Below, piece after piece: positions 2,719 to 21,877 of a stretch of DNA of 64,000 bases (positions are counted from its first letter, which is position 1; the number at the start of each line of letters is the position of its first letter). The position numbers and the translations under genes are program-made. The notes beneath the pieces are model-generated. The model saw only the letters and a program-made list of their open reading frames with translations, searched no databases and had not been told where the DNA came from. The DNA is from Candidatus Hydrogenedentota bacterium (GTDB taxonomy: Bacteria; UBA8481; J006), in NCBI GenBank assembly GCA_003697085.1, contig RFFU01000074.1, positions 17,562 to 81,561 of the forward strand, given 5' to 3'.

Positions 2719-2908
2719 TCTTCTCCCTCCATCTTTCGATATTCTTGAGGCTCTTTTCGTCCTCTGTTCCTTTAGAAGCTCTGAGGCGAAAACCGTTTAC
2801 CTGAAATAACGGTAACTTTTCTTACATAGGGAGCATACAACATGTTCCCAAAAGGATTTACCACGAAAAGAAGAGAGGGGAGAAAAGAGAAGAGTGATCG
2901 ACCTTCGC

Positions 2909-4659: not shown

Positions 4660-5930
4660 TCGGAGAAACCATCCGCTGTTTCCGCGGAAAGAAATGCGAG
4701 ATATTTCCCGACGATCTTTTCCCAACTGTAATGGTTCCGGACGAAAAGGGTGGCGCGGCGTTGTTGTTCGATAGCGTGGTCGGTGTCGAACGAGAGTATC
4801 TCGTTGATTTTTCCGGCCAGTGCCTCGACATCGGCCGGCGGGAAGTAGTAGGCCCCTTCTCCCTCCTGGACGGCCCCGATGTTTCCTCCGACCTCACTGA
4901 CCAACGCGATCGTTCCACAGGCCATTGCTTCAAGGGCGATCGTGGCGGATCCTTCCGTGTCTCCTCGGCTGTCGATGCAGGAGGGGAGAACAAAAAGGTC
5001 GGCGCTTCGCATCCAATCGACGATTTCTTCCTCGGGAATGGGACCGGGCATGATGACGTCGTTTTCGAGACATAATCTTCTCTTCAGAGCCTCCAGTTCA
5101 TTTTGCAAAGGGCCGTCGCCACCGAGAAGGAGACACGCATCGGGATGTTCTTTTTTTACCGCCGGCATCGCCTCCAAAAGGTATCGGTGCCCTTTCCTCT
5201 CAACCATTCTTCCCGTGAAGAAGAGAACTTTCCTGCCGAAGATTTTATATCTTTCGAGAAGGGTGAGGTTGGGAGGTCCTGGAGAATAATAAGCCGTATC
5301 GATGCCATCCGGGATGATCTTGGGGCGGATGCCCGGCGCCACTCGTTCGAGGGCGTCGGCCGTGTTTTTGCTGATGGCAACGAGAAGATCGGCGCCCCGA
5401 GCGCTCATGCGAACGAAAGGTTTGAGAAAAGTCCAGCGGCCGGAATCGAGCGGAAAAATCTCGGCTCCATACGCCGTGATGATCAGCGTGCGACCCGTCA
5501 TTCGTTTGATGAGATAACCGATGAATCCGGGAGGAAACGCCCAGTGGGCATTGATATAACGGATTCTGTTTTCTTGAACGATTCGATAGGCGGTCCAGAA
5601 GAGTCTGAAAAAATAGAACGGAACCTGAAGGAGGCACCACGGGTGACGAATGTTTTCGGGGATTCCGGCGCCCGAGGTGAGTGTCTCCCAGCCGGATACG
5701 AAATAATGAAATCGGTGGATGTTCACACCGTCGACTTTGGCGAAGAGTGCCGTACCGGGTTCGGCGTGAGTCACGACATGAACGGCAAATCCGGCGGAAA
5801 CGAAACTCTTCGCCGCGTGATGGACGAACTTCCCCTTCGGAAGTCTCTTTGAATCGCGGACAAAGGAAGGATAGGAGGTTGTCAGAATACAGAGGGAGCG
5901 TTGGGAGTGCCCGGCGTGGAGAGTCGTCAC
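4656..5930 (-). CDS. Glycosyltransferase family 1 (GT4-like, retaining GT-B)
   Basis: C-terminal GT1 signature ...LLLGGDGPLQNELEAL...ADLFVLPS...EGSATIALEAMACGTIALVSEVGG... (EX7E-type motif). Confidence 0.8.
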   Translation of the reverse strand: MTTLHAGHSQRSLCILTTSYPSFVRDSKRLPKGKFVHHAAKSFVSAGFAVHVVTHAEPGTALFAKVDGVNIHRFHYFVSGWETLTSGAGIPENIRHPWCLLQVPFYFFRLFWTAYRIVQENRIRYINAHWAFPPGFIGYLIKRMTGRTLIITAYGAEIFPLDSGRWTFLKPFVRMSARGADLLVAISKNTADALERVAPGIRPKIIPDGIDTAYYSPGPPNLTLLERYKIFGRKVLFFTGRMVERKGHRYLLEAMPAVKKEHPDACLLLGGDGPLQNELEALKRRLCLENDVIMPGPIPEEEIVDWMRSADLFVLPSCIDSRGDTEGSATIALEAMACGTIALVSEVGGNIGAVQEGEGAYYFPPADVEALAGKINEILSFDTDHAIEQQRRATLFVRNHYSWEKIVGKYLAFLSAETADGFSE

Positions 5931-6487
5931 GAGAATTCCACGAAATGAATGGAAACCGAATCAATGGATCGACGGGATTTTCCCAACACGGATTTCCTTC
6001 TCATCCTCCCGGCGATGAGGGTAGCAAGCCGCCAGGGGGCGGGCAACCGATAAAGCGCCGGAAGGAATGCGGCGTAAAGTCGGTCCCTTGTGTCAATCCT
6101 GTTCTTCATTCCATCGAGTCCCCGTCTCATCTTCGCGGAGCCCTTCGTGGAGGAGGCCGGCCGGGTTCTCTCCCCCGGTGTCATTCCGAGCGAGGCGGAG
6201 CGAAGCAACGCCGACGAGGAATCCCCCATGAGTGCCATCCAGCGCATAGCGCGGGGTTCTTACCTGCGGAAATTCGCTTCATAGAGCGGCCAACCCTGGG
6301 AACGCAGGCATCCTGCCTGCATGGAAGGGATGGAACGTAGACTTTTCAGTCCACGCGAGTGAAACGCGGACTCTCCCGTCCGGGGAACGACGCGGCAAAG
6401 TTCGGCACAAATGCCCCCTCTTTGCCTCGCAACCGCGGAACCGCGGGGTTTGTTGCGAAAAGAACACCTCCCTCTTATACTTGATTT

Positions 6488-7474
6488 ATGTATCAAAAAC
6501 AGCGGATCGCGCTGGTTATTCCGGCTCACAACGAAGAGAAACTCATCGGAGATACGTTGCGGGGGGTTCCGGAACTTGTGGACGATATCTACGTAATTGA
6601 CGACGGTTCCACGGACGCGACCTCGGAATGCGCAAGGAAAGTCGGAGACCGCCGGGTCGTGGTCATTCGGAAGGAGAAGAACGAGGGAGTGGGAGCTGCG
6701 ATCGTTACGGGCTACAAGGTTGCCTTTGAGAGAGGCGCCGATATCGCCGTCGTGGTTGGTGGCGATAACCAGATGGACCTGGCGGAGATCGAGAATTTTC
6801 TTCGACCGATCATCGAGGGAGCGGCGGATTACACGAAAGGCAATCGGTTTCTCGATCCCTCCGGGACTTTCGAAAGAATGCCGACCGTCCGGCTCTTCGG
6901 AAATGCCTTGATTTCGGCGATGTGTAAATTGGCTTCCGGTTATTTCAAAGTTTATGATGCGGTGGACGGTTACACGGCGCTGTCGAGATATGGATTCGAG
7001 CAAGTTCGATGGAAGAAGGTCTGGAAGGGATATGGATATCCTTTGGACTTTCTCATTCGTCTCAATACTGCAGGACTTCGGGTAATGGATGTGCCGCGAC
7101 GCGCAATTTACCTTTCCGGGGTCCGACAATCCCAGATTCACGGTTTCTCGTATGCAATTCACGTGTTCCCGATGCTTCTGCGGGGTTTCTTTCGGCGACT
7201 GCTTTACAAATATATTCTTCGAGATTTCCATCCGCTCGTCTTCTTTTATTTGCTGGGGCTCTTCCTGGTTCCGGCGGGATTCGTTTTTGGCCTCTACCTC
7301 GTTTGGCAGCAGGCAAGCGGGATCGGCGTCTCCGGCCCCCGTGCCGTTTTGTGCGCCTTGGCGATCTTGATAGGAGTGCAATCCTTCTTCTTCGCCATCG
7401 CTTTCGAAATCCTGCATCAAGAATCCCCCGGAAACCGACGCCAAGAAGGTCGTTCGAAGCGACAATCGTTATGA
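6488..7474 (+). CDS. Glycosyltransferase family 2 with C-terminal TM helices (polyprenyl-phosphate sugar transferase / DPM-synthase-like)
   Basis: IALVIPAHNEEKLIGDTL...IYVIDDGSTDAT... (GT2 DxD context). The C-terminal ~90 aa are hydrophobic (2 TM). The gene is co-directional and only 137 nt upstream of the first precursor peptide gene. Confidence 0.8.
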   Translation: MYQKQRIALVIPAHNEEKLIGDTLRGVPELVDDIYVIDDGSTDATSECARKVGDRRVVVIRKEKNEGVGAAIVTGYKVAFERGADIAVVVGGDNQMDLAEIENFLRPIIEGAADYTKGNRFLDPSGTFERMPTVRLFGNALISAMCKLASGYFKVYDAVDGYTALSRYGFEQVRWKKVWKGYGYPLDFLIRLNTAGLRVMDVPRRAIYLSGVRQSQIHGFSYAIHVFPMLLRGFFRRLLYKYILRDFHPLVFFYLLGLFLVPAGFVFGLYLVWQQASGIGVSGPRAVLCALAILIGVQSFFFAIAFEILHQESPGNRRQEGRSKRQSL

Positions 7475-7611: not shown

Positions 7612-7758
7612 ATGGCGGAAAAGGAAGCTGAGAAGGTTGAGTCGGATTCCGGGAAGGAGCCGGAGAGGAAAGAGGAGGAGGCGCTTTCCGAGGAGGAGAT
7701 GCGGAAGGTGACGGGGGGACGACTCTTTGGAAATTCGATCGCCGGGCGGGTGCTATGA
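7612..7758 (+). CDS. Short precursor peptide with a double-glycine leader (48 aa: 36-aa leader + 12-aa core RLFGNSIAGRVL)
   Basis: MAEKEAEKVESDSGKEPERKEEEALSEEEMRKVTGG|RLFGNSIAGRVL. The LSxxEMxxVxGG motif matches the consensus recognised by C39 peptidase-ABC exporters. Strong RBS 7 nt upstream. Paralogous leader in the next gene. In the ORF track this is the in-frame tail of the spurious 7009..7758 ORF. Confidence 0.75.
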   Translation: MAEKEAEKVESDSGKEPERKEEEALSEEEMRKVTGGRLFGNSIAGRVL

Positions 7759-7828: not shown

Positions 7829-8515
7829 ATGGCGGAAAAGGAAGACGGGAAGGCAAAAGCCGACAAAGAGAAGGAACCGGAAAGAAAACCGGAGGAACCC
7901 CTTTCGGAGGAGGAGATGAAGGATGTGGCGGGAGGGTTTATTCCCACTCCGGCCACTTTCGGGAATCCCCTTTCGTCCCGGATGGCGTCGAGATTGCGTC
8001 GGCGCGGCGCGGTCGGTCCGGTCGATCCCGAGGAGGCGGTCTCACGCGGTCCGGTCGATCCCGAACAAAGCCGGCGTCCCGACGATCCGAAACACCCGTG
8101 GCACCTTTGCTTCGGCCCGGAGACGCTGGTTCCAACGCGGAAGGGCTATCAGCCTATTTCTGGGATCGCAGTCGGTGACGAGATCGTCAGTGTCACCTTC
8201 GACGGAACCTTGTTCGTCGATCGGGTCGAAAAGCTGGACGTTCACCACGGGGAGATTTCCGTGATCGAACTTTCGTTGGACGACGACGTGATTCTCGTCA
8301 CTCCTGACCATAAGGTCTGGTCGGGCGAGAAATGGATCCGAGCCGCCGACTCGATCTATGTTTCCCGGACGAAGGTGGGAAGAATCGTTCCGGCGGTCTA
8401 TAACCTTCGAACCACCACGGGAACATACCTGGTCGGATACAGCGGACTGCTCGTTTCAGGTGGGCGGGTGGAAGACCTGCATTCCGAGGATCCGGTGGCG
8501 GAGGTTGCTCGGTAG
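7829..8515 (+). CDS. Precursor protein of 228 aa: double-glycine leader (36 aa), 57-aa core, and a C-terminal Hedgehog/intein-type Hint autoprocessing domain
   Basis: MAEKEDGKAKADKEKEPERKPEEPLSEEEMKDVAGG|FIPTPATFGNPLSSRMASRLRRRGAVGPVDPEEAVSRGPVDPEQSRRPDDPKHPWHL|CFGPETLVPTRKGYQPISGIAVGDEIVSV...ILVTPDHKVWS...VPAVYNLRTTTGTYLVGYSGLLVSGG. Hint block A begins with Cys (codon 8108..8110; compare CFTPES in Hedgehog). Block B is T-x-x-H (VTPDHKV). Block F/G-like VYNL..TGTYLV is present, but there is no terminal His-Asn. The track ORF starts at an in-frame GTG at 7820; the ATG at 7829 with an RBS matches gene 1. Confidence 0.75.
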   Translation: MAEKEDGKAKADKEKEPERKPEEPLSEEEMKDVAGGFIPTPATFGNPLSSRMASRLRRRGAVGPVDPEEAVSRGPVDPEQSRRPDDPKHPWHLCFGPETLVPTRKGYQPISGIAVGDEIVSVTFDGTLFVDRVEKLDVHHGEISVIELSLDDDVILVTPDHKVWSGEKWIRAADSIYVSRTKVGRIVPAVYNLRTTTGTYLVGYSGLLVSGGRVEDLHSEDPVAEVAR

Positions 8516-8549
8516 GAATGTCTTCACCTGACAATTCCTGAAGTTCCCG

Positions 8550-8590
8550 AAGGAGGGCGTGTTTTCGGAACCGTCCTCCTTTTCTTTTTT
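8550..8590 (+). terminator. Rho-independent terminator after the precursor genes
   Basis: aaggagggcg-tgttttcggaac-cgtcctcctt forms a 10-bp stem (one G-U pair) followed by tttctttttt. Confidence 0.55.
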
Positions 8591-8739: not shown

Positions 8740-10986
8740 TTACCCTTGTTGGAACGGTTCCCCCGGCGCTGCCTCCGCCATACGCTCGAGAAAATAGACC
8801 GCCGGGCCGTCGTAGGGAAGTCGTCGTGCGACCTCGGTGATCGATTCCTTGGCACGGGCGACGTCCTTTTCGCGGTAGGCTCGAACGCCCTTCTCCCACG
8901 TTTCCATAACCTCCAGGTAACTCTTCGGGAGCCGTGCGGTTTCATCCACAAGTTCGTAAACATCCAACGCGGCTTTCTGTCCCCGAAGCCGAAAGACTCC
9001 GACGGTACGGAAATAGAACCGGTTTGGAGCGCACTTTTCGACCTCTTGCTTCGTCTCTCCGGACGTCAGGATTGTCGTGCCGAGATCGCGGTTGAGACTT
9101 TCGAGCCGCGAGGCGATATTGACCGTCGTGCCGATGACCGTGTAATCGAAGATCGTTTCGGAACCGAGGTTTCCGGCCACGACTTCGCCTGTATGGATTC
9201 CGATTCGAATGCCGAGATTTGGCCACACTCCGCTGGCCCACGTCTGGGCCAGCTCCGCCACCGCCCGCCGCTTTTCCAGGGCGCAGGAACAGGCGAGCAC
9301 GGCGTGCTTCTCCTGGTGAAGAGGGACGTTCCATTCGGCCATCACCGCGTCGCCGATCATCTTGTCGATCGTTCCGTCGAACGCGACGATCTTCTCGGTC
9401 ATCCTCGTGAAGTAGGTGTTGAGGAAGCGGACCAGATCTTCCGACGGCAACTCCATCGCCCACCGACTGAAGTGTTTGATATCCGAAAAGAGGACGGTCG
9501 CCGTCGTCTTTCGACCGACGAGTGTCAGCGCCGAGGGGTCCTTCAGGATCTCCCGCATTACGGAGGGGGCGACGTATTTCTGAAAGGCCAATCGCAGCCT
9601 CCGTTTCTCCTCGAACTGGTGATAGGTCCAGTCCGACAGGAGGAAGATGCTGGAGGCGAGCAAGGGAGCCGCGACCGGAAGAAGAAAGCCTTTGTTCATC
9701 AGTACTGCGGCGGCTCCCAGAAGAAGAACGCCACTTCCCGCCAAGGATGTCACTCCCCAAACCAGATTGCGGCGCATCCCCCACCATGCAAGAAACGCCG
9801 TGAGGACCGTAAGCAGCCAACCGAGCCACCTTGGAGGGAGCCGGAGGGAGGTGGGATCGAGCAGGGTTGCCGTGGCGTTTGCCAAAATCCGAGTGTAAGG
9901 AAGGGAAACGCCCAAGGGAGTCCGAATCCTCTTCCGAGCGGGACCGATCAAAACGATTCGCCCGGAAAAACGGTCCCGCGACAGCCGTTTCGGCGCGTTA
10001 TCGAAAGCCGCGTCGTGCCACAGGTCGGCGAAGGAAAGCGGTTCCCCTGGAAAGACCTCGAAACGTCCCGCCCGATCCTTTCGATTCCGTTTCGGGTTTC
10101 GGTAATAGTTGACCAGGATGGTTTCGTCCGCATTGGCGGCGCTTTGCTCCCCGAGATTCCGGAGGAGCGAACATCGTGCGCGCCCGTTTCCAGTAAACCC
10201 ACCGGAGTTGCCGGAGAGAGAAGCCGTCCAACCGGCGATCGCCAACGGCAGAGACGGGAAGAAAACGCCCTTGACCTGGAGCCAGAGTGGGAATCCCATC
10301 GTGGGGCGTTCCGGGCGCCGAAAAGCAAGGAAGCCGATCTCCGTTTTCGGAGTCGATACGCGGGACGAGGGAAAAGAGACGCTCGGAACGGAAAGAATTT
10401 TCTTCGGGGGGGTGGAAAAGGAACAGGCGGCCGCGTCGAGTACGGCGGCTTGTTGCCGGTTTGAATTCGCGAAGCCCGAGTCGATTCGGAGAGGCAGGAT
10501 GTTGGGGATTCGATCGAGCGCACTTCGAAAGGAGGCATCCTGTTCTCGGGAGAAGAGGACGGGAAATTCCGCCACGAAGGTTTCGAGTTGGCTCTCTTGT
10601 TCGGCGAGGTGTTTTCGGAGCGCGTCACGGAAGATCGTTGAATTGAGTTTGACGGGAACTTCGTCCAGTACGAAGGGAATGTGGAACGCGACCCCCTGGG
10701 CCCCGTTCTCCGCGAGATATTCGACCACCTTCGCAAAAACACTTCTCGGCCAAGGAGGTTCTCCCATTTCGGGCTTCAGTCTTCGCAAACTTTCGTCATC
10801 GATTTCCACGACCGTGAGGGGCAACTCCGTGGTCGTTTCCCGGTAATGACGGCGTATCCGAAACGCGATGGTTTCTTCCTCGAGACCCTGAACGAGATAG
10901 AACGGGTCCAAGAGGACGAAGAGGACGATCACCGCGAGAAGAAGGGTGCTCGAGTGAGAGAAGTTCTTGACCGACCTAAGAATCAT
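8740..10986 (-). CDS. CHASE2 sensor domain-containing class III adenylate/guanylate cyclase
   Basis: N-terminal signal/TM, a large periplasmic region and several TM helices typical of CHASE2. C-terminal cyclase catalytic domain VLFSDIKHFSRWAMEL...FDGTIDKMIGDAVMAEWNVP...IRIGIHTGEVVAGNLGSE...YTVIGTTVNIASRLESL. Confidence 0.85.
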   Translation of the reverse strand: MILRSVKNFSHSSTLLLAVIVLFVLLDPFYLVQGLEEETIAFRIRRHYRETTTELPLTVVEIDDESLRRLKPEMGEPPWPRSVFAKVVEYLAENGAQGVAFHIPFVLDEVPVKLNSTIFRDALRKHLAEQESQLETFVAEFPVLFSREQDASFRSALDRIPNILPLRIDSGFANSNRQQAAVLDAAACSFSTPPKKILSVPSVSFPSSRVSTPKTEIGFLAFRRPERPTMGFPLWLQVKGVFFPSLPLAIAGWTASLSGNSGGFTGNGRARCSLLRNLGEQSAANADETILVNYYRNPKRNRKDRAGRFEVFPGEPLSFADLWHDAAFDNAPKRLSRDRFSGRIVLIGPARKRIRTPLGVSLPYTRILANATATLLDPTSLRLPPRWLGWLLTVLTAFLAWWGMRRNLVWGVTSLAGSGVLLLGAAAVLMNKGFLLPVAAPLLASSIFLLSDWTYHQFEEKRRLRLAFQKYVAPSVMREILKDPSALTLVGRKTTATVLFSDIKHFSRWAMELPSEDLVRFLNTYFTRMTEKIVAFDGTIDKMIGDAVMAEWNVPLHQEKHAVLACSCALEKRRAVAELAQTWASGVWPNLGIRIGIHTGEVVAGNLGSETIFDYTVIGTTVNIASRLESLNRDLGTTILTSGETKQEVEKCAPNRFYFRTVGVFRLRGQKAALDVYELVDETARLPKSYLEVMETWEKGVRAYREKDVARAKESITEVARRLPYDGPAVYFLERMAEAAPGEPFQQG

Positions 10987-11590: not shown

Positions 11591-11718
11591 CCCATTTTTT
11601 CTTTCATTCGCTCTTGAAAATCAATACCAATTGGATTAAACTATAATGCTCTCCTGTTGGAGATTTCGGAGAAGATCGAATTTGAGGAACCGTGGGAGGC
11701 GGGAAGGAGTTCGCGTGT

Positions 11719-12765
11719 ATGAGGTGGTTTTCGCGACGTCTTTTCTCTCTAGGAATGGCGGTTTCGGCTTTGTTTTTGGTGGCGGGAGCCGGGAATGCTT
11801 CCCTCTATTCCTCCAACGGTTTCTATAACGTTACCTTCAACAATCCAACAAACACGAAATATATCGACAAGAGAGCCTCGGATTTCATCGACGCGGCTCA
11901 GTCGTACTGTTACGTCGCGATCTACGCGCTGAATCGCCAGAGGATCGTGGACAGCCTGATCGAGCGTCACCAGGCCGGGGTGGACGTTCGCGTGGTGACC
12001 GAAGCCGATAACCGTAATCACCCCTCCTACAAGGCCGCTTATGATCAACTCGAGGCCGCCGGAATCGTCGTCAAAACCGATAACCGGTCCGCTCTGATGC
12101 ACCACAAGTTCATCGTGGTCGATGATAACGAGGTTCTGACGGGATCCTACAATTTTACCGATGAAGGAACGCAACAGAACAAGAACAATCTCTTGGTCAT
12201 CCACTCCTCGGGCGTCGCTTCGCGTTTCAAGGGAGAGTTCCTCGAGATGTGGGCGGGGAGGTTCGGCAACGCGAAGGCGGATTTCTCGGGGAGAAACACC
12301 GTCAGCGGCGCCACCGTGTACACGAAGTTCGGCCCGAAGGCGAATCTCCGCGCTTCCCTGCTCTACCATCTCAACACCGCCAACGTTTCCGTCTATTTCA
12401 ACATCTTCACCTTCACCGACCAGTCGATCGCGGACAAGTTGGTCGAACTCCACCAGCGCGGTGTTACCGTAAAAGGCACGATGGACGCCTACCAGGCCAC
12501 CGACCAGTATTCGCAGTATCAGTACCTCGTGGCGAACGGCCTGCCGATCAAGCGCGATGCATATGCGGGTTTGTTGCACGACAAATTCATCGCCATCGAC
12601 GCGGGAACCGCCAGCACACCGAAACTGATCACCGGTTCGGCGAACTGGACGGCCGCGGCCGACGAGGAGAACGACGAGGATATGTTGGTCATCTACGACT
12701 ACGACACCGTCGGAAGAAGTTACAAGGGAAACGCCGTTTACGTCTACAACTACAAGGCCTACTGA
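11719..12765 (+). CDS. Secreted phospholipase D-like superfamily protein with two HKD motifs (PLD/Nuc-like phosphodiesterase)
   Basis: Signal peptide MRWFSRRLFSLGMAVSALFLVAGAGNA. First HKD: LMHHKFIVVDDNEVLTGSYNFT. Second HKD: LLHDKFIAIDAGTASTPKLITGSANWT. The track ORF starts at 11692; the ATG at 11719 gives a clean signal peptide. Confidence 0.8.
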   Translation: MRWFSRRLFSLGMAVSALFLVAGAGNASLYSSNGFYNVTFNNPTNTKYIDKRASDFIDAAQSYCYVAIYALNRQRIVDSLIERHQAGVDVRVVTEADNRNHPSYKAAYDQLEAAGIVVKTDNRSALMHHKFIVVDDNEVLTGSYNFTDEGTQQNKNNLLVIHSSGVASRFKGEFLEMWAGRFGNAKADFSGRNTVSGATVYTKFGPKANLRASLLYHLNTANVSVYFNIFTFTDQSIADKLVELHQRGVTVKGTMDAYQATDQYSQYQYLVANGLPIKRDAYAGLLHDKFIAIDAGTASTPKLITGSANWTAAADEENDEDMLVIYDYDTVGRSYKGNAVYVYNYKAY

Positions 12766-13007: not shown

Positions 13008-13286
13008 GTGGTGCGGGAGATCGTCGGCGAGGCGGCCAAGGTCGAGGGAATCGCCTGGGTCGTCCTTTTCGGTTCCCGCGGCCGGGGGGATCATAATCGC
13101 CGTTCGGATTATGATATCGCAATCTCGGCACCGTTGTTGTCCAGGCAAGATTGGACGTTCTTCGCCTCCCACCTTCGGGATACGGTCCGAACTCTCTGTT
13201 GTCTCGATTTGGTCCGTTGGGAAGATCCCCTCGATCCCGAATTGAGAAGAGAGATCGAACGAGGAATCCGGGTTTACGCGGCGTGA
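13008..13286 (+). CDS. Nucleotidyltransferase-domain antitoxin (MntA-like, type VII TA)
   Basis: VVLFGSRGRGDHNRRSDYDIAI is the minimal NTase fold GS-x9-13-DxD motif; 92 aa. Confidence 0.75.
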   Translation: MVREIVGEAAKVEGIAWVVLFGSRGRGDHNRRSDYDIAISAPLLSRQDWTFFASHLRDTVRTLCCLDLVRWEDPLDPELRREIERGIRVYAA

Positions 13287-13687
13287 ATCGCCTTTCGTCC
13301 TCGATCGAGAACCTGAAATTGGCCTTCGCCGCGCTCGAACGGTTGCTGAAAACCCCCGTCACAGAACCACGCGATCTTTCCGGTATCGTGAAGGATTTCG
13401 AGATCGTCTATGAATTGAGTTGGAAGACCTTGAAAAAATTCCTCGAAAGCGAGGGCCATTCCCCTCGTTCAGCCAGGGAAGCCTTCCTTTTGGCCTTTCA
13501 ACTCGGATACCTGGAGGATGATCGGGTCTGGGTCGAGATGATCGAAGACCGAAACCTCACGGGACACACTTATAATCAACCTTTTGCAGCCTCTTTGGTG
13601 AAGCGGATACGGGAGAAGTATCTCCCCGCTTTGGCGGGACTAAGGAATACGATCGTCTCAGAGAGGGAAAACCAGACCAATCGTTGA
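13283..13687 (+). CDS. HepT-like toxin (nucleotidyltransferase substrate-binding protein, HI0074 family)
   Basis: Overlaps the MntA stop (GTGA). Contains the Rx4HxY motif (RNLTGHTY) near the C-terminus. The in-frame GTG at 13283 is taken as the start. Confidence 0.7.
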   Translation: MNRLSSSIENLKLAFAALERLLKTPVTEPRDLSGIVKDFEIVYELSWKTLKKFLESEGHSPRSAREAFLLAFQLGYLEDDRVWVEMIEDRNLTGHTYNQPFAASLVKRIREKYLPALAGLRNTIVSERENQTNR

Positions 13688-13859
13688 ATCGCGTTACGAC
13701 TTCCGTCACCCGGCTTCGCAATCTTTCCATAATGACCAGCGATACCGAGTGATGACGAGAGGGAGAACGAGCGTTTGGATAGGCGGGAGGAATGGGATGC
13801 CCGGGCCGCCGCGTTTTCTTGGACGAATCAGCATCTCCCAAAAAGGAATCGACGAAGTC

Positions 13860-14138
13860 TCAACCCCCGTTCCCGAACCGCTGTGCCACAACCAGAAGGA
13901 GTTCTCGAAACCCACCGGGCCGCCGGACAAGCGCAGCCGGATCGGGCAACGACTTCGGCACTTTCGAACCGTCGGTGAAGCCTTGGAGGTAGAGATCCAG
14001 GAAGGAATCGACGAGCGACAATAACTCCTCGAATTGTCCGGGCCCGAGCCGCGAGGCCAGATCGTTCATCAACGTTTCGTCTTCGAGAATCGCCTCGTGA
14101 ACCCGCCGGCGAAAATGAGCCGTGTTTCTTACTGCCAT
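13860..14138 (-). CDS. Hypothetical small protein (92 aa)
   Basis: Intact ORF with GC3-rich codon usage typical of the window; no recognisable motif. Weak call. Confidence 0.3.
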   Translation of the reverse strand: MAVRNTAHFRRRVHEAILEDETLMNDLASRLGPGQFEELLSLVDSFLDLYLQGFTDGSKVPKSLPDPAALVRRPGGFRELLLVVAQRFGNGG

Positions 14139-14309
14139 TCGATGACTCTATTCTCTCTGTTCCAACGATGCAATTCGATATGGCCGCGCGGGAACGAAGA
14201 AACGGCGAGGGTTTCGGGGCGCGCGGAGATTTGGAGCCGACCGGCCGGTGAAGCGCATAACATCCATTGTGATTTCGTGAAGAGCGGGGCGAACCGACGC
14301 CACCCGGCG

Positions 14310-14660
14310 CCCCCCTGTCCTTCCGAGGAGGCCGAAGGCCAACGAGGAATCCCCCGCGGGAGCGAAACCGGCCCCCTGGAAGTATGGCGAAAAACGGGCA
14401 CCGTTTGTCGGATCGTGTCCGTCCACTCCGGCGCGAAACCCCGCATGGGATCGGGACGGGCGAAAGGTGACCCTCTGCGAACCCGTTTTTGCAGGCAAGA
14501 TGCCTGCCTGTCGGCAGGCAGGCCCGCGCTCCCAGGACACGCTTCCCATTCCCTTTTCGTTTCCCTTCCCCATTCCCTTTTTTTTGCCCTTGCCTTTGCC
14601 CTTGCCCTTCCCGCGTGATACTCCGTGGAGGGGATTCCTCAATCGCCTTACGGCGATTTT
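14310..14660. repeat. Composite intergenic repeat element (modules B, A and C in reverse orientation)
   Basis: 14320-14345 cgaggaatccccc (module B). 14488-14545 gcaggcaagatgcctgcctgtcggcaggcaggcccgcgctcccagga (module A). 14545-14620 ttcccattcccttttcgtttcccttccccattcccttttttttgcccttgcctttgcccttgcccttccc (module C, pyrimidine strand). Confidence 0.7.
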
Positions 14661-14875
14661 CGGAATGATAAAAGACGCTGTCCTTCCGGGGATGCCGCAG
14701 TCCCGGTGAGGCATCCTCGATGAGGAGGGGCTGCCGACGGCTCGCTTCTCGTCCCCACCTGTCTTTGGGTCTGCGCCCCCGGCAGGAGACAGCCGGATGC
14801 CCCTCTGGATGGCTCACTATGTCCCCGTGTACTTCTGAAACTGTCAAAATGGAAGAATGACACCTTTTTCTTTGT

Positions 14876-15496
14876 ATGATAGGTTGGGAAACGATGCGAA
14901 AGGTCCTTTTCATTCTCGGGCTCCTGACGGATCAGGATGTTGAACGCCTCGGGAGGCTGGGGTCCATCGAGAAGATTTCAGCGGGAGCGACGTTGATAGA
15001 AGCGGGGCGTCATCCCGACAAGGTCTATTTCATACTCAGCGGTATTTTTCGTGTTACGCGGAACGCTGCCGTCGGTACGGAGGGGGCGAGCGAGGGGGCG
15101 GTGGGTTCGAAAAACGTCGTGGCGGAACTGCGCGCGGGTGAAGTATTGGGGGAGATGTCGTTCGTTCAAGATGCGCCGCCGACGGAGACGGTCACGGCGG
15201 TCGGGGAGGGTGAGGTCTTGGCGATACCCCGCGAGGACCTCCGCGCCGTTCTCGAATCGGATCCCGCTTTCGCCTCGCGTTTTTATCAAGCCATCGCCGC
15301 TTTTCTTGCGGATCGCCTGCGCGGAACGATGAACCGGCTCTATGGGAGGCCGACGGAAACGGCGGGAGCGGGAGACGATGACTCGGAGAGAGGAACGATT
15401 CTCGAAGAGGACGAGTTGGATCCCCGCGTTCTTGATCGTGTTTCGCGTGCCGGAGAACGATTCGACCGATTGCTCAAGAAGTTCCGCGGGAGATAA
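14876..15496 (+). CDS. Cyclic nucleotide-binding domain protein (CAP-effector-domain family, no HTH)
   Basis: ...KVYFILSGIFRVT...RAGEVLGEMSFVQDAPPTETVTAVGEGEVLAIPREDL... is the canonical cNMP-binding beta-roll signature (G-E-x-S/A ... R-T-A-T-V-like). First gene of the exporter operon. Confidence 0.8.
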   Translation: MIGWETMRKVLFILGLLTDQDVERLGRLGSIEKISAGATLIEAGRHPDKVYFILSGIFRVTRNAAVGTEGASEGAVGSKNVVAELRAGEVLGEMSFVQDAPPTETVTAVGEGEVLAIPREDLRAVLESDPAFASRFYQAIAAFLADRLRGTMNRLYGRPTETAGAGDDDSERGTILEEDELDPRVLDRVSRAGERFDRLLKKFRGR

Positions 15497-15501
15497 GACG
15501 T

Positions 15502-16746
15502 ATGGTCGAATATCGCAAGGCGGCGCTCGATAAACTTGCTTCCCCCGAGCAACTCGACCGTCTCATTACGGTCACCGGTTCCCGTAGTTGGCTCGCTCTG
15601 GGCTCCATCTGTTTTCTTCTTCTCCTGATCCTCGTTTGGAGTGTCGTCGGGCGGATCCCCGTCACCGTCTCGGGACGCGGAATCCTGATCCGGGAGGGGG
15701 GGTTGGTTGAGATCGAGAGTCTGGGGACGGGATTAATTTCGGAGCTCCTGGTGGAGGAAGGGGATCACGTGGAGCCGGGCCAGCTGGTCGCTCGGATCCG
15801 ACAACCGACGCTCGTAACGGAGATCGAACAAGCGCGGGATCGGGTGCAGGAGCTCGAGGTGCAGCGGGAACGGACTTCGAAGCTAGAGTCGGAACGTGTC
15901 CGGCTGGGGGCCGCCGCGCTCGACCAACAGGAGGCGGAATTGCGAGGAACGATCCGCACCTCTCGGGAACGTGTTGCGTGGTTGGAGAAGCGGGTGGAGG
16001 CCTATCGCGATGCTGTTCGCGAGGGGCTGATCACGGAGGAGGAGTTGCGGCGGGTGATGAAGGAACGGGCGAGCGAGCGGGAGGTGATCGCGCGGGCCGA
16101 ATCCCGTCTCAAGAAGATCGCGTCGGATCGCCAAGCGCTGGAGACCGAGCGGGAGCGAAATCTTCTTGCGATCGACAAACAGCTCAGCGACGCCCGGCGG
16201 ACGCTGGCGGCTTTGGAGTCGCGGCTTCGCGAGGAAGGGCAGGTGTTTTCTCCGCACCGGGGCCGGGTCGTGGAGATCAAGGTCGAGCAAGGAGCGATTG
16301 TGACGAGGAACGCGGCCCTGATGAGTCTCGAGGCGGAAACGGGCCCGCTGGTCGCCGAGGTTTTCATTCCGGTCGAGGCGAAGAAGATACGCCGTGGGAT
16401 GGCGGCGCGGATCGCTCCCGCCACGGTGAAAAAGGAAGAGTACGGGATGATTGTCGGGCGCGTGGACGGTGTCTCGGCGCTTCCCGCCACGCGGGAAGGG
16501 ATGATGCATCTTTTGAAGAACGAATTGTTGGTCAAAGAACTGGCTTCGCGCGGCGCCCCCTTCCGTGTCACGTTGTCGCTCGAGGAGGATTCGGCGAGTT
16601 TCAGCGGTTTCCGATGGACCTCCTCGCGCGGGCCGAGAGTGCGGATCGAAAGCGGGATGCTCTGCGAGGGACGGATCGTCGTGGAGAAGAAGGCGCCGAT
16701 CCGCTTTCTTATTCCGGCGCTCAAGTCCTTCTTCGGCATAACGTAA
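15502..16746 (+). CDS. HlyD-family membrane fusion protein (bacteriocin-type / NHLM-type secretion adaptor)
   Basis: N-terminal cytoplasmic stretch, single TM (WLALGSICFLLLLILVWSVV), then long coiled-coil and beta-barrel hairpin regions typical of type I secretion MFPs. 6 nt downstream of the cNMP-binding gene. Confidence 0.8.
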   Translation: MVEYRKAALDKLASPEQLDRLITVTGSRSWLALGSICFLLLLILVWSVVGRIPVTVSGRGILIREGGLVEIESLGTGLISELLVEEGDHVEPGQLVARIRQPTLVTEIEQARDRVQELEVQRERTSKLESERVRLGAAALDQQEAELRGTIRTSRERVAWLEKRVEAYRDAVREGLITEEELRRVMKERASEREVIARAESRLKKIASDRQALETERERNLLAIDKQLSDARRTLAALESRLREEGQVFSPHRGRVVEIKVEQGAIVTRNAALMSLEAETGPLVAEVFIPVEAKKIRRGMAARIAPATVKKEEYGMIVGRVDGVSALPATREGMMHLLKNELLVKELASRGAPFRVTLSLEEDSASFSGFRWTSSRGPRVRIESGMLCEGRIVVEKKAPIRFLIPALKSFFGIT

Positions 16747-16757
16747 CTCGGAGAACG

Positions 16758-18962
16758 ATGGCTGTCGCCGCCGCGGAAGGTATCAAACCGTCTTCGGGAA
16801 AACCGCGGTTCCGTCGTGTCCGAACGCCGACGGTTCTTCAGATGGAGGCGGTGGAGTGCGGCGCGGCATCGCTGGCGATTATTCTCGAGTATTACGGCCG
16901 CGTGGTTCCGCTCGAGGAACTTCGCGTCGCATGCGGGGTGACGCGGGACGGAAGCAACGCCTTTCATTTGATCTCGGCTGCGCGGGAGTACGGATTCGAA
17001 GCCCACGGATACCGAAAGGACATTCCCCACCTCTACAACATCAAACCGCCCTTCATCATCTTCTGGAACTTCAACCATTTTTTGGTCGTCGAGGGATTGG
17101 CCAAGGATCGCGTTTTTCTCAACGATCCCGCGATGGGACCGCGCGTCGTTCCGATGGACGAATTCAACGAGTCCTACACCGGCGTTGTTCTGACCTTTGA
17201 ACCGACGCCGCGCTTCAGGAGAGGGGGACGCCGTCCGAGCCTGTCAGCGGCGGTCTGGAACCGCGTACGCCACTCTTCCGAAGGCATCGCCTACGCCGCT
17301 GTGGCGGCCGTCGCGCTCGTCGGCCCCGGATTGGCGGTTCCCGCCTTTTCGCGGATCTTCATCGATGACATTCTCATCGGCGGAATGCACGACTGGATCC
17401 GTCCCGTCCTGCTCGGTTTGGCGATCACTGGGTTTTTTCGCGTCTTTCTTACCTTTCTCCAGTCCCATTCTCTTCTTCGGCTCGAAACGAAACTTTCGAT
17501 CACCCAGACCGGTCGCTTTTTGCACCATATCCTTCATCTTCCCGTCTCGTTCTACCAGCAGCGTTACGGCGGAGAAATCAGCAACCGAGTCGGTTTCAAT
17601 TCGGACATCGCCCGCATCCTTTCGAACCGTCTCGCCGGAACGATCCTGGACCTTTTCATGACTGTCTTTTATGGAACGGTTCTCTTTCTGCTTTCTCCGG
17701 TGTTGATGCTGATTGCGGTTCTGGGAGTGGCCGCGAATGCCGTTACGGCTCGGACGATGCATCGGACCCTGACCGACGAGAACCTCCGTCTTCAGCAAGA
17801 GGCCGGAGCGACTTTGTCCGCGGCGATGTCCGGCGTGGCCTCGATCGAGACGCTGAAGGCGACGGGGAGCGAATCGGACTTCTTCGCGAACTGGGCGGGG
17901 CATCACGCGAAATACACGGTGACGATGCAAAACCTGAGTCTCAAAAGTGCTCTCTATTCCTCCCTCTCGACCCTCGTGAATTCCCTTTCGGACGTGGCGA
18001 TTCTGGGAGCCGGGGCCCTTCTGATTATGAACGGCCGCATCACGATGGGAACCTTTGTCGCCTTTCACGCGCTCTCCGCCTCCTTTGCGGGTCCGGTGAC
18101 GCGGATCATCAATCTCGCGACGGTGATTCAAGCCTTGCGCGCGCGCCTTGTCCGTCTCGACGACGTGCTCAATCACAAACACGCGCCGGACCTGCGGGTC
18201 GCGGAATCGACGCCGGTCGTTGCAGAAGAGGAAGAGAAACTTTCGGGACATCTCGAGATCCGCAATCTCACCTTCGGCTATTCGCGTTTCGATCCGCCGT
18301 TGATCGAGAATTTTTCGATGACGATCGCTCCGGGCGGGCGCGTGGCTTTGGTGGGGGCATCGGGATGCGGGAAATCGACATTGGCGAAACTGATCACCGG
18401 ATTGTACGAGCCGTGGGAGGGTGAGATTTATTTCGACGGACGTCCGCGAAAGGCGATCCCGCGTTCCGTGCTTACGAGCTCCGTTGCGATGGTGGATCAA
18501 GAGATTTCACTCTTTTCCGGAACCATTCGCGAGAACATTACACTTTGGGACGAGACGATTCCGGATATCGAAGTGGTGCGGGCGGCCAAGGATGCGGCGA
18601 TTCACTCCGAGATCACAGCGCGCGCGGGGGGATATGACGCGGAGTTGGAGGAGGGAGGAGCGAATCTTTCCGGCGGTCAACGCCAGAGGCTGGAGATCGC
18701 CCGGGCGCTCGTGACGAATCCTCGCCTGCTGATTCTGGACGAGGCGACCAGCGCTCTCGATCCCGTGACCGAGAAGGAGATCGATCGCAATCTGCGGGTG
18801 CGCGGTTGTACCTGCGTGATCGTCGCCCATCGGCTTTCGACGATTCGCGACGCGGACGAGATCATCGTCCTTGAACGCGGCCGGGTGGTTCAAAGGGGGA
18901 CGCACGAGGAATTGATCGCCGATCCGGACGCGCCGTATGCGCGATTGGTAAAGGCTCAATGA
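16758..18962 (+). CDS. Peptidase C39 domain-containing ABC transporter (double-glycine leader cleaving, bacteriocin exporter, peptidase/permease/ATPase)
   Basis: N-terminal C39 domain with catalytic Cys in MEAVECGAASLAIIL and His in FNHFLVVEG. Six-TM permease. C-terminal NBD with Walker A GASGCGKST, signature LSGGQRQRLEIARAL and Walker B LLILDEATSALD. The ATG at 16758 is used; the track ORF's upstream extension overlaps hlyD and is spurious. Confidence 0.88.
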   Translation: MAVAAAEGIKPSSGKPRFRRVRTPTVLQMEAVECGAASLAIILEYYGRVVPLEELRVACGVTRDGSNAFHLISAAREYGFEAHGYRKDIPHLYNIKPPFIIFWNFNHFLVVEGLAKDRVFLNDPAMGPRVVPMDEFNESYTGVVLTFEPTPRFRRGGRRPSLSAAVWNRVRHSSEGIAYAAVAAVALVGPGLAVPAFSRIFIDDILIGGMHDWIRPVLLGLAITGFFRVFLTFLQSHSLLRLETKLSITQTGRFLHHILHLPVSFYQQRYGGEISNRVGFNSDIARILSNRLAGTILDLFMTVFYGTVLFLLSPVLMLIAVLGVAANAVTARTMHRTLTDENLRLQQEAGATLSAAMSGVASIETLKATGSESDFFANWAGHHAKYTVTMQNLSLKSALYSSLSTLVNSLSDVAILGAGALLIMNGRITMGTFVAFHALSASFAGPVTRIINLATVIQALRARLVRLDDVLNHKHAPDLRVAESTPVVAEEEEKLSGHLEIRNLTFGYSRFDPPLIENFSMTIAPGGRVALVGASGCGKSTLAKLITGLYEPWEGEIYFDGRPRKAIPRSVLTSSVAMVDQEISLFSGTIRENITLWDETIPDIEVVRAAKDAAIHSEITARAGGYDAELEEGGANLSGGQRQRLEIARALVTNPRLLILDEATSALDPVTEKEIDRNLRVRGCTCVIVAHRLSTIRDADEIIVLERGRVVQRGTHEELIADPDAPYARLVKAQ

Positions 18963-21877
18963 CGGCGCGCGATCTGCTCGCGTCTCTCGCTCGGCTCGGT
19001 CCAGAACGGGATGTGAGCGGGAAGGAGACGTTCTACGTTCAGGGAGCCGAACGCGCGTGGGTCCTGACGAAAGGCGTTGTCGATGTCTTCGCGGTTATGC
19101 TCGAGGACGAGCGGCCCATCGGCCCGCGACATTACCTCTTCAGCGCCTCGCCGGGAATCATTCTCTTCGGTGTCGATCTTCTCCGCTACCACAAGCGTTG
19201 TGCTCTGTTGGCGGTCGGAGTTCCGGGAACGCGTGTTGTTTCCTTCGGCATCGCGGATTTGGTCGAGACGGCCCGGCGAAGTGGAACGCTGGAGGCGCTG
19301 GCGAGGCAGATTGAGGATTTTTCTGGAAAGGTAGGGGCGCTCTTCACCGCTCGTGAGCGGCCACCGTTCGATGAATTTCTCGCCGTGGGAGAGGAACGAG
19401 AGGTTCCGGCGGGTCGTGTTCTCGGAACGGAGCGCGGAATTACTTGGGTCCACGTGATCGGGGGGAAGGTCCGGCTCTGTGGTTTCGAGGATCTCGTCGT
19501 GGAGGCCGACGGCACCGCCGTTCCTCTCGCCCCGGGGCTTTGGCTCGAAACACTTATTGCGTCACATCTCGAGGTGATCGACAGCCGCGCGTTGCTTGAA
19601 CGCGATCCGCGCCTGAAGGCGTTGGGAAATTTGCAAGCCGTATATGTCCGATGGATCGAGGACCGCATCGCGGCGAAGCGGGCCGAGGAGCGGGAACGAA
19701 TTTCCCGGAGGCGTGAGCGGGATCAGGCGATTCTTGCCAAGGCTCTGGAGGATCTTAGCAGTGTTCTTGTCGGAAAAGGGCGCGCCGTGCCGGAGCACGA
19801 TCGTCCTCTGTTGGCCGCCTTGAATCGGATCGGCGCCGCGCTCGATTTGGATTTTCACCTTCCTTCGGAGTGGGAGTTGAGCCGGTACGGCGCCGCGCCT
19901 CTCGAGGCCATCTGCCGCCGTTCGCGGATCCGCCACCGGCGGGTGGCCCTTTACGGAGATTGGTATCGCCGGGACAACGGGCCGTTATTGGTCTTTCGAG
20001 ACAAGGAGCACGGGGCAACGCCCGTAGCCGCGGTTCCTCTTTCGGAGTCGCAGTACGAATACTTTGACCCTGTCACGGGAGCGACGGGGATTCTGACGCG
20101 GGATGTTGCCGCCACGCTCGATCCCTTCGGCGTGATGTTTTATCCTCCGCTTCCCGCAAAACCGCTTCACGTCTTTCAACTACTCAGACACGGAAGCCGG
20201 TTCGTTTCGAAGGACCTCCGGCGGGTGTTGGGGTTGAGTTTGGCGGCCGGCGCGCTTTCGCTGGCGTTGCCGTGGGCGACAGGGCTCCTTTTCAGCGACG
20301 TGATTCCTTCTTCCGAGCGACCGCTTCTTCTGCAGGTTGTTTTAGCGCTGTTGATCGCTTCTTCCGTCCAGACGCTCTTCCATTTCGTTCGCACGATTGC
20401 GCTGACGCGGATGCGGGCACGGTGGGGCGAGACGGTTCAGGCGGCGCTGTGGGACCGGATCGCTTCCTTGCCTCCGCGATTCTTCCGCCGCTTCACCGTC
20501 GGGGATCTCGTGGATCGCGCCGAGGTCGTGGATCACCTGCGCGAGGAACTCAGCGGCGCCGGGCTGACGGCCATCATCGGCGGGTTGATGTCGCTGATGC
20601 AATTTATTTTGATGTTCTACTATAGCCGGGTTCTCGCTCTGGGAGCCTTGGGAATCACGGCGCTCTTTGCTCTCGTGACCGGAGGCCTTGCCGTGGGAAT
20701 GCTGCGGTACGAGAGGGAGATGCAGAGGATCGCGGGGCGCCTCTCGGGTTTTCTTTACCAGGTGATCACCGGCATTGCCAAGATTCGGGTGGCGGGGGCC
20801 GAGGAACGGGCGTTTGCGGAATGGGCGCGACGGTTCCGCCGCGAACGCCTTCTCCGCTTCCGGGCCGGCTCCTACCAGAACATCATTCTCACCGTCAATG
20901 CCGGGCTGCCGATCCTTTCGACGATTCTCGTCTTTCTCCTTGTGCGTTATGCCGCGTTGCTCCCGGAGGGAGCCTGGATCAGTGTCGGGGATTTCATTGC
21001 CTTCAACGCCGCGATGACCGTCTTCCTCAACTCCGCGCTTTCGCTTACCGACACGGCGGTCAACCTTCTCAACCTCGTCCCGATGTTCGAACGCGTCGAG
21101 CCGATTCTTGTGACGGAGCCGGAAGCGCGGGAGGATCGGCCGGATCCGGGGCGCATCACCGGTTCTGTCGAGATGAGTCACGTTTCGTTTCGGTATCATC
21201 CCGACGGGCCGCTTGTTCTCGACGATGTTTCGTGGTCGGCGGCGCCCGGGGAGTTCGTTGCGTTGGTCGGGCCGTCCGGGGGAGGCAAATCGACGATCAT
21301 CCGGTTGTTGCTGGGATTCGAAATCCCGGAGACGGGAAACATCTATTTCGATGGGAGGGATGTATCGGCGGTGGACGTCACGGCGTTGCGGCGTCAGATC
21401 GGAGTCGTTCTCCAGAACAGCCGGCTCCGCCCCGGCTCGATCTTCGACAATATCGTCGGTTCCTCGAATCTTACCCTCGATGATGCCTGGCGTGTGGCCG
21501 AGCAGGCGGGTTTGAAGGAGGATATCGAGGCGATGCCGATGGGAATGCACACGAACATTTCCGAGGGAGGGACGACGTTTTCGGGGGGGCAGCGACAACG
21601 AATTCTGATCGCCCGCGCGCTGATTCATCAACCGCGAATCCTGATCTTCGACGAAGCGACGAGTGCCCTGGACAACACGACGCAGAAAGTCGTCTCCGAC
21701 AGTCTCGACCGTCTCAATGCAACGCGGATCGTGATCGCCCATCGCCTTTCGACGATCCGAAATGCCGACAGAATCTATGTAATCGAGAAGGGAAGGATTG
21801 TACAACGGGGAAACTACGAGGAATTGATGACGGAGGGAGGTCTATTCACCGACCTCGCGCGCCGTCAACTCGCTTAG
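18959..21877 (+). CDS. ABC transporter ATP-binding/permease with N-terminal cyclic nucleotide-binding-like domain (second component of the NHLM-type exporter)
   Basis: 972 aa. The N-terminal ~150 aa are cNMP-binding-like (ETFYVQGAERAWVLTKGVVDVF). Then a degenerate peptidase-like region, a 6-TM permease, and an NBD (GPSGGGKST; FSGGQRQRILIARAL; ILIFDEATSALD). ATGA start/stop overlap with the preceding gene. Confidence 0.85.
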   Translation: MTARDLLASLARLGPERDVSGKETFYVQGAERAWVLTKGVVDVFAVMLEDERPIGPRHYLFSASPGIILFGVDLLRYHKRCALLAVGVPGTRVVSFGIADLVETARRSGTLEALARQIEDFSGKVGALFTARERPPFDEFLAVGEEREVPAGRVLGTERGITWVHVIGGKVRLCGFEDLVVEADGTAVPLAPGLWLETLIASHLEVIDSRALLERDPRLKALGNLQAVYVRWIEDRIAAKRAEERERISRRRERDQAILAKALEDLSSVLVGKGRAVPEHDRPLLAALNRIGAALDLDFHLPSEWELSRYGAAPLEAICRRSRIRHRRVALYGDWYRRDNGPLLVFRDKEHGATPVAAVPLSESQYEYFDPVTGATGILTRDVAATLDPFGVMFYPPLPAKPLHVFQLLRHGSRFVSKDLRRVLGLSLAAGALSLALPWATGLLFSDVIPSSERPLLLQVVLALLIASSVQTLFHFVRTIALTRMRARWGETVQAALWDRIASLPPRFFRRFTVGDLVDRAEVVDHLREELSGAGLTAIIGGLMSLMQFILMFYYSRVLALGALGITALFALVTGGLAVGMLRYEREMQRIAGRLSGFLYQVITGIAKIRVAGAEERAFAEWARRFRRERLLRFRAGSYQNIILTVNAGLPILSTILVFLLVRYAALLPEGAWISVGDFIAFNAAMTVFLNSALSLTDTAVNLLNLVPMFERVEPILVTEPEAREDRPDPGRITGSVEMSHVSFRYHPDGPLVLDDVSWSAAPGEFVALVGPSGGGKSTIIRLLLGFEIPETGNIYFDGRDVSAVDVTALRRQIGVVLQNSRLRPGSIFDNIVGSSNLTLDDAWRVAEQAGLKEDIEAMPMGMHTNISEGGTTFSGGQRQRILIARALIHQPRILIFDEATSALDNTTQKVVSDSLDRLNATRIVIAHRLSTIRNADRIYVIEKGRIVQRGNYEELMTEGGLFTDLARRQLA

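Follow-up and report, generated by a model that had tools for sequence, protein, structure and literature searches.

In a 64-kb stretch of the Candidatus Hydrogenedentota contig RFFU01000074.1 (hereafter the window, meaning the whole stretch that was analysed), a class III adenylate cyclase with a CHASE2 sensor is encoded within a peptide-secretion locus, between two genes for peptides with double-glycine leaders and the genes for an exporter composed of a HlyD-type adaptor and two ATP-binding cassette proteins (ABC1 and ABC2). We propose that this cyclase is an accessory signal-input module for the locus, a functional link to which we give an even chance. The proposal draws above all on comparative genomics: class III cyclases recur beside exporters of this type in other genomes, across phyla, which supports a functional tie between the two. 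In the chain of events that we envisage, the CHASE2 domain would sense an envelope or extracellular cue and thereby change the synthesis of cyclic AMP (cAMP), and the nucleotide would then modulate either peptide export or expression of the locus. The candidate receptor would be a CRP-like cyclic-nucleotide-binding (CNB) protein, devoid of a DNA-binding domain, that belongs to the export cassette. Judging from residue conservation, this receptor step is the weakest in the chain.

The cyclase gene, at 8740-10986 on the minus strand, has an intact reading frame worth 748 codons. Its product matches the Pfam families CHASE2 (PF05226; 84.8 bits against a cutoff of 26.3, 9e-24, aa 19-399) and Guanylate_cyc (PF00211; 83.5 bits against a gathering cutoff of 21.9, 2e-23, aa 493-677). 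Among solved structures, 53 cyclases match at E<=1e-5, the closest being Pseudomonas aeruginosa CyaB (3r5g, E 9e-29), followed by photoactivated and cyanobacterial class IIIb cyclases. Hydropathy yields a topology usual for CHASE2 proteins, in which the sensor is extracytoplasmic: a first transmembrane (TM) segment is followed by the periplasmic CHASE2 domain, three further TM segments, the catalytic domain and a helical tail. A sequence-only reading of the window had described a class III cyclase with an extracytoplasmic CHASE2 sensor, and Pfam, the CyaB match and hydropathy all bear this out.

A protein 100% identical to the cyclase is annotated in a Ca. Hydrogenedentota metagenome-assembled genome (MAG). 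Besides this protein, the best full-length match among 5.8 billion sequences shares ~32-33% identity, and partial alignments reach at most 38% among the matches listed. Since the cyclase has no close relatives, we tested conservation from the exporter side, fetching loci via homologues of the CNB protein: the best 80 of at least 498 places in species-representative genomes (1.25 Mb) and, as an independent set, the 80 best-matching metagenome loci (0.59 Mb, mostly short contigs). Note that neither set is random, that every sampled locus carries the CNB protein by construction, that many loci come from MAGs and that genes in the flanks were called with a simple longest-open-reading-frame heuristic. 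Using a hidden Markov model of the cyclase domain, we find a class III cyclase within 10 kb of the cassette in 10/80 genome loci, seven times as the immediate neighbour gene. The metagenome set repeats the pattern, with 8/80 loci, or 8/35 when contigs of at least 7 kb are counted. The cyclase lies on the CNB-protein side of the cassette in 12/18 loci. Even if 0.5% of genes, a generous figure, encoded such cyclases, observing seven in 134 immediate-neighbour slots would have a binomial P of ~6e-6, or ~0.005 when the loci are collapsed to four lineages; this background frequency is an assumption, controlled indirectly by a Pfam census, and we count it among the points against our proposal.

The census covered 485 non-cassette open reading frames (ORFs) within 6 kb of the cassette at the genome loci. 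Guanylate_cyc, with 10 occurrences, was the third commonest family, after the outer-membrane efflux protein (OEP; 14), which is the expected partner of a type I secretion system, and DUF7005 (at least 12). It was followed by Response_reg (9-10) and HATPase_c (7-8), and GGDEF was not among the 25 families listed for each census batch. Bacterial genomes usually hold several-fold more two-component proteins than class III cyclases, so that a cyclase count equal to that of response regulators implies enrichment in the flanks of the cassette.

The cassette-linked cyclases display at least seven sensor architectures: CHASE2-cyclases (loci L010, L019, L029 and L150), FHA-GAF-cyclases (L015, L092, L128 and L138), FHA-cyclases (L104 and L109), Zn-ribbon-cyclase-AAA-TPR proteins (L048 and L017), a CHASE4 (weak)/HAMP-cyclase (L055), a REC-cyclase (L040) and a Tll0287-cyclase (L155). 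The FHA-cyclases, the Tll0287-cyclase and the CHASE2-cyclase of L150 were added by the metagenome set. In L010, L019 and L029 (Rhodobacterales, Pleomorphomonas) a CHASE2 cyclase directly precedes the genes for HlyD, ABC1, ABC2 and the CNB protein on the same strand, with 18 bp between cyclase stop and HlyD start in L010. In L048 and L017 (Thermoanaerobaculia), L040 (Bryobacteraceae) and L015 (Acidobacteriota) the cyclase instead directly follows the CNB gene. Synteny is kept even where the cyclases have diverged considerably, to 41% identity between the CHASE2 cyclases of L010 and L150, 57-62% between the FHA-GAF cyclases of L015 and L128, and 52% between the AAA-TPR cyclases of L048 and L017.

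Several observations nevertheless weigh against a functional link in the window itself, and a somewhat unlikely alternative is that the cyclase is a chance neighbour whose product goes to the cAMP pool of the whole cell or to a CRP-type regulator not linked to the locus. The gene is on the strand opposite the exporter, has its own 706-bp upstream region, and is separated from the cassette by genes for a PLD nuclease and a HEPN-type protein. Its closest CHASE2-cyclase homologues (P0002, P0004 and P0007) are not beside exporters, and its identity to exporter-linked CHASE2 cyclases (27-33%) is no greater than that to unlinked ones. Neither the cyclase nor the CNB protein has close relatives in the databases searched with which local synteny could be compared. 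Moreover, 142/160 sampled loci (~89%) have no cyclase nearby, and the CNB protein is without the Arg that would contact the phosphate, as detailed below. Against mere coincidence stands, first, the recurrence of cyclases of many architectures beside the cassette, with conserved synteny. Second, the window cyclase has substrate genes on one side and exporter genes of that same system on the other. Third, it is the sole cyclase seen in the 64 kb and lies 3.9 kb from the CNB protein, besides which the window holds no other recognisable CNB domain.

That the nearest homologues occur away from exporters implies that the link belongs to the cassette neighbourhood rather than to one cyclase orthologue group. 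It looks as if the cassette has repeatedly recruited various cyclases, and not as if a single orthologous cyclase has travelled along with it.

If the cyclase does serve as an input module for the locus, what would receive its signal? The CNB protein (whose start is placed 18 bp later, at 14894, in public annotation P0022) scores 131.7 bits against TIGR03896, under the cutoff of 161, and matches model positions 137-317, that is, one CNB domain; it falls in a single-domain sister group of ~180 aa and has no relatives above ~50% identity over its length. Its AlphaFold2 model (pLDDT 81) resembles most closely, by Foldseek, the sensor domains of the cAMP-binding proteins CRP, GlxR and Clr. Behind a long C-helix, a disordered linker leads to a C-terminal helix that is conserved (AG.RFDRLLK) and probably docks on the transporter.

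The phosphate-binding cassette of this protein is canonical in all but one respect. The Gly-Glu pair that contacts the ribose 2'-OH is kept (GEMSF), with G and E invariant across the family, whose consensus reads GEMSF[VI]D[SA][RA]PPSATV; the Ser-Ala that follows the missing Arg is canonical as well. At the position of the phosphate-contacting Arg the window protein has Pro, whichever solved CNB domain it is aligned with, and the canonical Arg occurs in 0/26 database homologues and 0/71 motif-matched homologues from the sampled loci, with or without a cyclase nearby. Pro is the usual residue at this position ('PPSA' being commonest), with Thr or Ala in other members, and two-domain cyanobacterial forms likewise have no canonical Arg. 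Many members carry an Arg shifted two residues earlier, where the window protein has Ala. We also considered whether cyclase-linked loci encode a more canonical cassette than other loci, and rejected this, as there is no difference. Of the two contacts whose loss the sequence-only reading had regarded as damaging, then, Arg is absent and Gly-Glu retained. A cassette without Arg that is otherwise canonical suggests that the ligand, or the way in which it is bound, is non-canonical; in a family of this kind, binding of a cyclic nucleotide would be non-canonical, or the nucleotide would act via another receptor. A related module tells the same way: the CNB domain of HetC was unresponsive to cAMP, cyclic CMP and 2-oxoglutarate, and bound ppGpp (Kd 59 uM), GTP and GDP (PMC10986499).

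An unusual relative was noted on a metagenome contig (L137), where one protein (2813-4057) joins an Arg-less CNB domain to an Rce1-like CPBP intramembrane protease, of a type often linked to bacteriocin immunity. Next to it (4266-6450), an ORF with a SAM domain and a truncated cyclase abuts an N-terminally truncated ABC2, an arrangement that may have arisen by deletion or rearrangement or may be an assembly chimera.

A second potential receptor, the N-terminus of ABC2, offers less. This conserved extension consists of two beta-rich subdomains and a coiled coil, and is present in 47/59 full-length ABC2 genes from the genome loci plus the window. The N-terminal 290 aa have no Pfam match even at E<=10 and no sequence match in the PDB. 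A homologue search with the domain returned nothing, and the alignment (A6) was built from the fetched loci. Profile comparison picks up a weak CNB-like signal in the first ~95 residues (hhalign probability 33%, E 4.5e-4; Crp-family 4ev0, E 0.011), Gly-Glu and Arg of the phosphate-binding cassette are absent, and a single-sequence AlphaFold2 model was unusable (pLDDT 43). ABC2 thus does not begin with a recognisable cyclic-nucleotide-binding domain, its likeness to CNB domains being remote and weak, which is a further point against direct gating by a cyclic nucleotide. The sequence-only reading had placed an operon with two such domains 4 kb from the cyclase: the CNB protein, a PF00027 match at 3.9 kb, survives scrutiny, and the ABC2 N-terminus, with no Pfam match, does not. 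The local circuit that it had suggested fares similarly. Recurrence of cyclases at the cassette speaks for it; direct gating by a cyclic nucleotide is disfavoured by the lost Arg, the unrecognised ABC2 N-terminus and the binding of ppGpp by HetC.

One might go further and imagine a phylum-spanning class of modular exporters, in which cyclases with swappable sensors (CHASE2, FHA-GAF, REC, HAMP, AAA-TPR, Tll0287) signal to an Arg-to-Pro CNB sensor that is docked via its C-terminal helix on a pseudo-CNB domain of ABC2 and gates the secretion of double-glycine peptides. Versions with CHASE2 could then sense the exported peptide itself, closing an autocrine, quorum-type loop. We regard this extended scenario as unlikely in its entirety and offer it as a tentative suggestion.

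A different route by which the cyclase could affect secretion is transcriptional. Imagine that cAMP acts via a canonical CRP-family factor, encoded elsewhere, on the promoters of precursor and exporter genes, while the CNB protein, lacking the Arg, responds to a different ligand, for instance ppGpp or GTP as in HetC. Both the HetC ligand data and the absence of Arg from the cassette CNB protein would fit, and the CHASE2 cyclases of Sinorhizobium meliloti are reported to signal through the CRP-like Clr. Locus L150 (2-10519) provides a precedent for the genes involved: here a CHASE2 cyclase is followed by a divergent canonical CRP (FFGELAAIDGKPRSAGV plus HTH_Crp_2; binding cassette of this CRP-family regulator, GELAAIDGKPRSAG) and then by HlyD-ABC1-ABC2-CNB, a gene order suggesting that cassette transcription may be a target of cAMP. 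However, an adjacent CRP is seen at just 1/18 cyclase-bearing loci, and the 64-kb window yielded no CRP-type factor. The motif TGTGA-N6-TCACA, an E. coli-type consensus that may not be that of Hydrogenedentota, has 10 matches in the window against 10.2 expected, none of them at the relevant promoters. On balance we consider control through such a factor decidedly unlikely.

Both the transcriptional route and the input module that we favour presuppose an active enzyme. The motif FSDIKHF (aa 500-506) supplies the metal-binding D502, DKMIGDAVMA (aa 541-550) K542 and the second metal-binding Asp, D546, and TVNIASRLE (aa 621-629) the transition-state residues N623 and R627, while T616 sits in DYTVIG. 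D502, D546, N623 and R627 fall in conserved columns of the alignments to solved cyclases and to 28 other cyclases, and the adenine-specifying K542 (DKMIGD) and T616 (DYTVIG) align to 'DKFVGD' and 'DYTIIG' of CyaB, with Thr replacing Asp. In the Linder-Schultz classification, the combination of Lys and Thr is the signature of class IIIb adenylate cyclases. By these alignments all six canonical catalytic positions are intact, and we infer that the cyclase is enzymatically active. The motifs quoted by the sequence-only reading in support of intact catalytic residues are thus all present and aligned with conserved columns, one deviation having been overlooked: Ile612, in the loop GSET-I-FDYT, at a position occupied by Arg or Lys in most of the other 28 cyclases aligned, the exporter-linked ones included. 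We take this to be the position of the Arg that contacts polyphosphate or bicarbonate in class IIIb cyclases such as CyaC and soluble adenylyl cyclase. When the equivalent Arg of the soluble enzyme is mutated, stimulation by bicarbonate is gone and basal activity stays. The change to Ile, which lies outside the six canonical residues, may reduce activity or abolish bicarbonate stimulation, and it too counts against our proposal. That Ile612 leaves a weak or inactive enzyme serving as a scaffold or pseudo-enzyme is nonetheless highly improbable, given the six intact positions, the basal activity kept by the soluble-cyclase mutant and the occurrence of other non-basic residues there in some homologues (His in P0004, Leu in P0014 and P0016).

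Turning to the substrates, the double-glycine motifs of the two precursors, LSEEEMRKVTGG and LSEEEMKDVAGG, are the sole ones in a leader context found by a motif scan across the window; the leaders are ~36-39 aa long with GG at their end, and neither precursor has a Pfam match to NHase_alpha or Nif11. Precursor 2 converges with the cyclase gene, the two ending at 8515 (+) and 8740 (-) on either side of a 224-bp spacer. RNA folding places a hairpin followed by a U-tract in this spacer, so that the tail-to-tail arrangement with an intervening terminator described from the sequence stands. Note that the folding z-score of the 95-nt stretch that includes the hairpin is only -1.1, and that an automatic scan for consensus terminators did not list it, probably because of a bulge in the stem.

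The C-terminal domain of precursor 2 (Pfam Hint_2, 0.0023) is of the Hint/BIL autoprocessing type, with a Cys at HL/CFGPETLV and a TPDH block. An exhaustive search recovered 14 cluster representatives at E<=1e-10, the window protein counted, and P0096, P0098, P0099 and P0100 share its design: DPKHP, a Cys-Hint start and ...VYNLRT..GTYLVG..ALVSGGT. To judge by these shared features, the relatives look like an uncharacterised exported-peptide family, the C-terminus of which may be cleaved or activated by the Hint domain.

Other cassette loci (for PLD, the 80 genome loci) hold no homologues of the PLD nuclease, FkbM and Hint-precursor genes, and the HEPN gene is likewise not found there. The PLD/NucT-like nuclease is weakly similar to DISARM DrmC and to DpdK, and the PLD and HEPN genes look like an inserted module of the defence or toxin-antitoxin type. 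A 361-aa ORF at 13828-14913 (-), overlapping the start of the CNB gene, was rejected as spurious: its GC content at second codon positions (GC2) is 0.61 against 0.39-0.46 for real genes, it is rich in Arg, Gly and Ser, and it has no Pfam match. Genes for glycosyltransferases and methyltransferases (GT4, GT2, Methyltransf_11) surround the secretion locus at 3901-7474 and 21928-27011, a 479-aa FkbM-family protein (FkbM methyltransferase) is encoded directly after ABC2, and a possible immunity protein, an Rce1-like CPBP protease, is encoded at 712-1584 (-). DUF7005, which occurs in at least 12/80 cassette neighbourhoods and is second there to the TolC-like OEP, was not seen among the window genes scanned. 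Coordinates of the secretion locus are collected in Table 1.

Table 1. The cyclase, its domains and the genes of the secretion locus, by position in the window.
Feature	Position	Strand	Basis
Precursor 1, 48-aa double-glycine-leader peptide, …LSEEEMRKVTGG / RLFGNSIAGRVL	7612..7758	+	ORF translation, motif scan
Precursor 2, 228 aa: leader LSEEEMKDVAGG, ~56-aa core, C-terminal Hint-like domain	7829..8515	+	ORF translation, Pfam, relatives of same design
Terminator-like hairpin and U-tract	8549..8590	+	RNA fold: 15-pair hairpin 8549-8582, then UUUUCUUUUUU
CHASE2-sensor class III (IIIb-like) adenylate cyclase, 748 aa	8740..10986	-	Pfam, PDB relatives
Cyclase homology domain, aa 493-677	8956..9510	-	Alignments to solved cyclases and 28 other cyclases
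TM cluster between sensor and catalytic domain, aa ~386-453	9628..9831	-	Kyte-Doolittle windows
Extracytoplasmic CHASE2 domain, aa 19-399	9790..10932	-	Pfam envelope
TM1, before CHASE2 domain, aa ~12-34	10885-10953	-	Hydropathy
PLD/NucT-like nuclease	11692..12765	+	Pfam PLDc_2 5e-48
HEPN-type NTase_sub_bind protein	13151..13687	+	PF08780 3.6e-27
CRP-like CNB protein, no DNA-binding domain, phosphate-binding cassette GEMSFVQDAPPTETV	14876..15496	+	PF00027 4e-18
HlyD-type adaptor	15502..16746	+	TIGR03794, 348 bits vs cutoff 156
ABC1, C39 peptidase/permease/ATPase (peptidase-containing ABC transporter, PCAT)	16758..18962	+	TIGR03796, 1026 bits vs 853; Peptidase_C39 7e-36
ABC2, permease/ATPase	18959..21877	+	TIGR03797, 876 bits vs 709, aa 281-971
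Conserved N-terminal extension of ABC2, ~280 aa	18959-19800	+	Alignment A6 of 32 loci

Why should a link between cyclase and exporter matter? ABC exporters that contain a peptidase and serve bacteriocins and signalling peptides occur in thousands of bacterial genomes, many of them with a CNB-type protein or domain, and the sole experimental test of a ligand, that of HetC, favoured ppGpp over cAMP. A recurrent and conserved cyclase neighbour names a candidate source of the ligand and makes the ligand question directly testable. Cultured carriers in which cyclase and exporter genes follow an operonic order exist, for example Pleomorphomonas sp. NRK KF1 (L029: cyclase, HlyD, ABC1, ABC2, CNB), and the family-wide change from Arg to Pro in the CNB cassette presents a clear target for work on ligand specificity. 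The prediction is that secretion of these peptides would be gated by environmental or cell-envelope signals. If the link is real, a further layer of control, post-translational or by a local second messenger, would be added to the export of bacteriocins and of ribosomally synthesised peptides that undergo post-translational modification (RiPPs), and the CHASE2 domain, which is poorly understood, would gain a defined output. In full-text searches, no paper came up on a cyclase-exporter link, on TIGR03896 or on TIGR03903.

How does the window compare with systems already described? In domain order, its cyclase is like S. meliloti CyaD1, CyaD2 and CyaK (TM segment, CHASE2, three TM segments, cyclase domain, helical tail), and it shares the Lys and Thr signature of class IIIb with P. 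aeruginosa CyaB. It differs from known CHASE2 cyclases in the insertions carried by its CHASE2 domain (381 aa against a 257-position model), and from these and CyaB in having Ile for the loop Arg and in being sited in a peptide-export locus, not beside a CRP/Clr regulator. The NCBIfam model for the kinase/cyclase fusion of thiazole/oxazole-modified microcin (TOMM) systems, TIGR03903, is also named for a protein with a cyclase homology domain, which the window cyclase region matches weakly (E 4e-8); its name comes closest to hinting at a cyclase-exporter link. We rejected membership in that family (31.5 bits against a cutoff of 706): TIGR03903 is built as kinase, cyclase and long tail, whereas the window protein combines CHASE2 with a cyclase, and there are no TOMM enzymes in the window.

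The exporter itself conforms to the three-gene cassette for NHLP/Nif11 peptides defined by Haft et al. 2010 (PMC2887384), a description that makes no mention of cyclases. TIGR03794, TIGR03796 and TIGR03797 are all present, each above its equivalog cutoff, in contiguous genes (15502-21877) with the CNB protein directly upstream, and this order (N-H-1-2, for CNB, HlyD, ABC1 and ABC2) is the commonest among the 80 genome loci. Unlike that cassette, the window has substrates with short double-glycine leaders and no NHase or Nif11 domain, and its CNB protein differs from the 'bacteriocin-type transport-associated' protein TIGR03896 in having one CNB domain instead of two and a score under the cutoff. 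HetC of Nostoc PCC 7120, a PCAT, is an exporter of the same clade that likewise has a CNB-type module on its cytoplasmic side; the module is needed for function, and no link to a cyclase has been reported (PMC10986499). In HetC a CNB domain recognised by Pfam is fused to the C39-bearing transporter, whereas the window encodes a separate CNB protein and an ABC2 with a remotely CNB-like N-terminus. The components of the locus, a CHASE2 cyclase, an NHLP-type cassette, a CNB companion and a CNB module like that of HetC, are thus each of a known kind, and the new part would be a second-messenger input module placed on an exporter.

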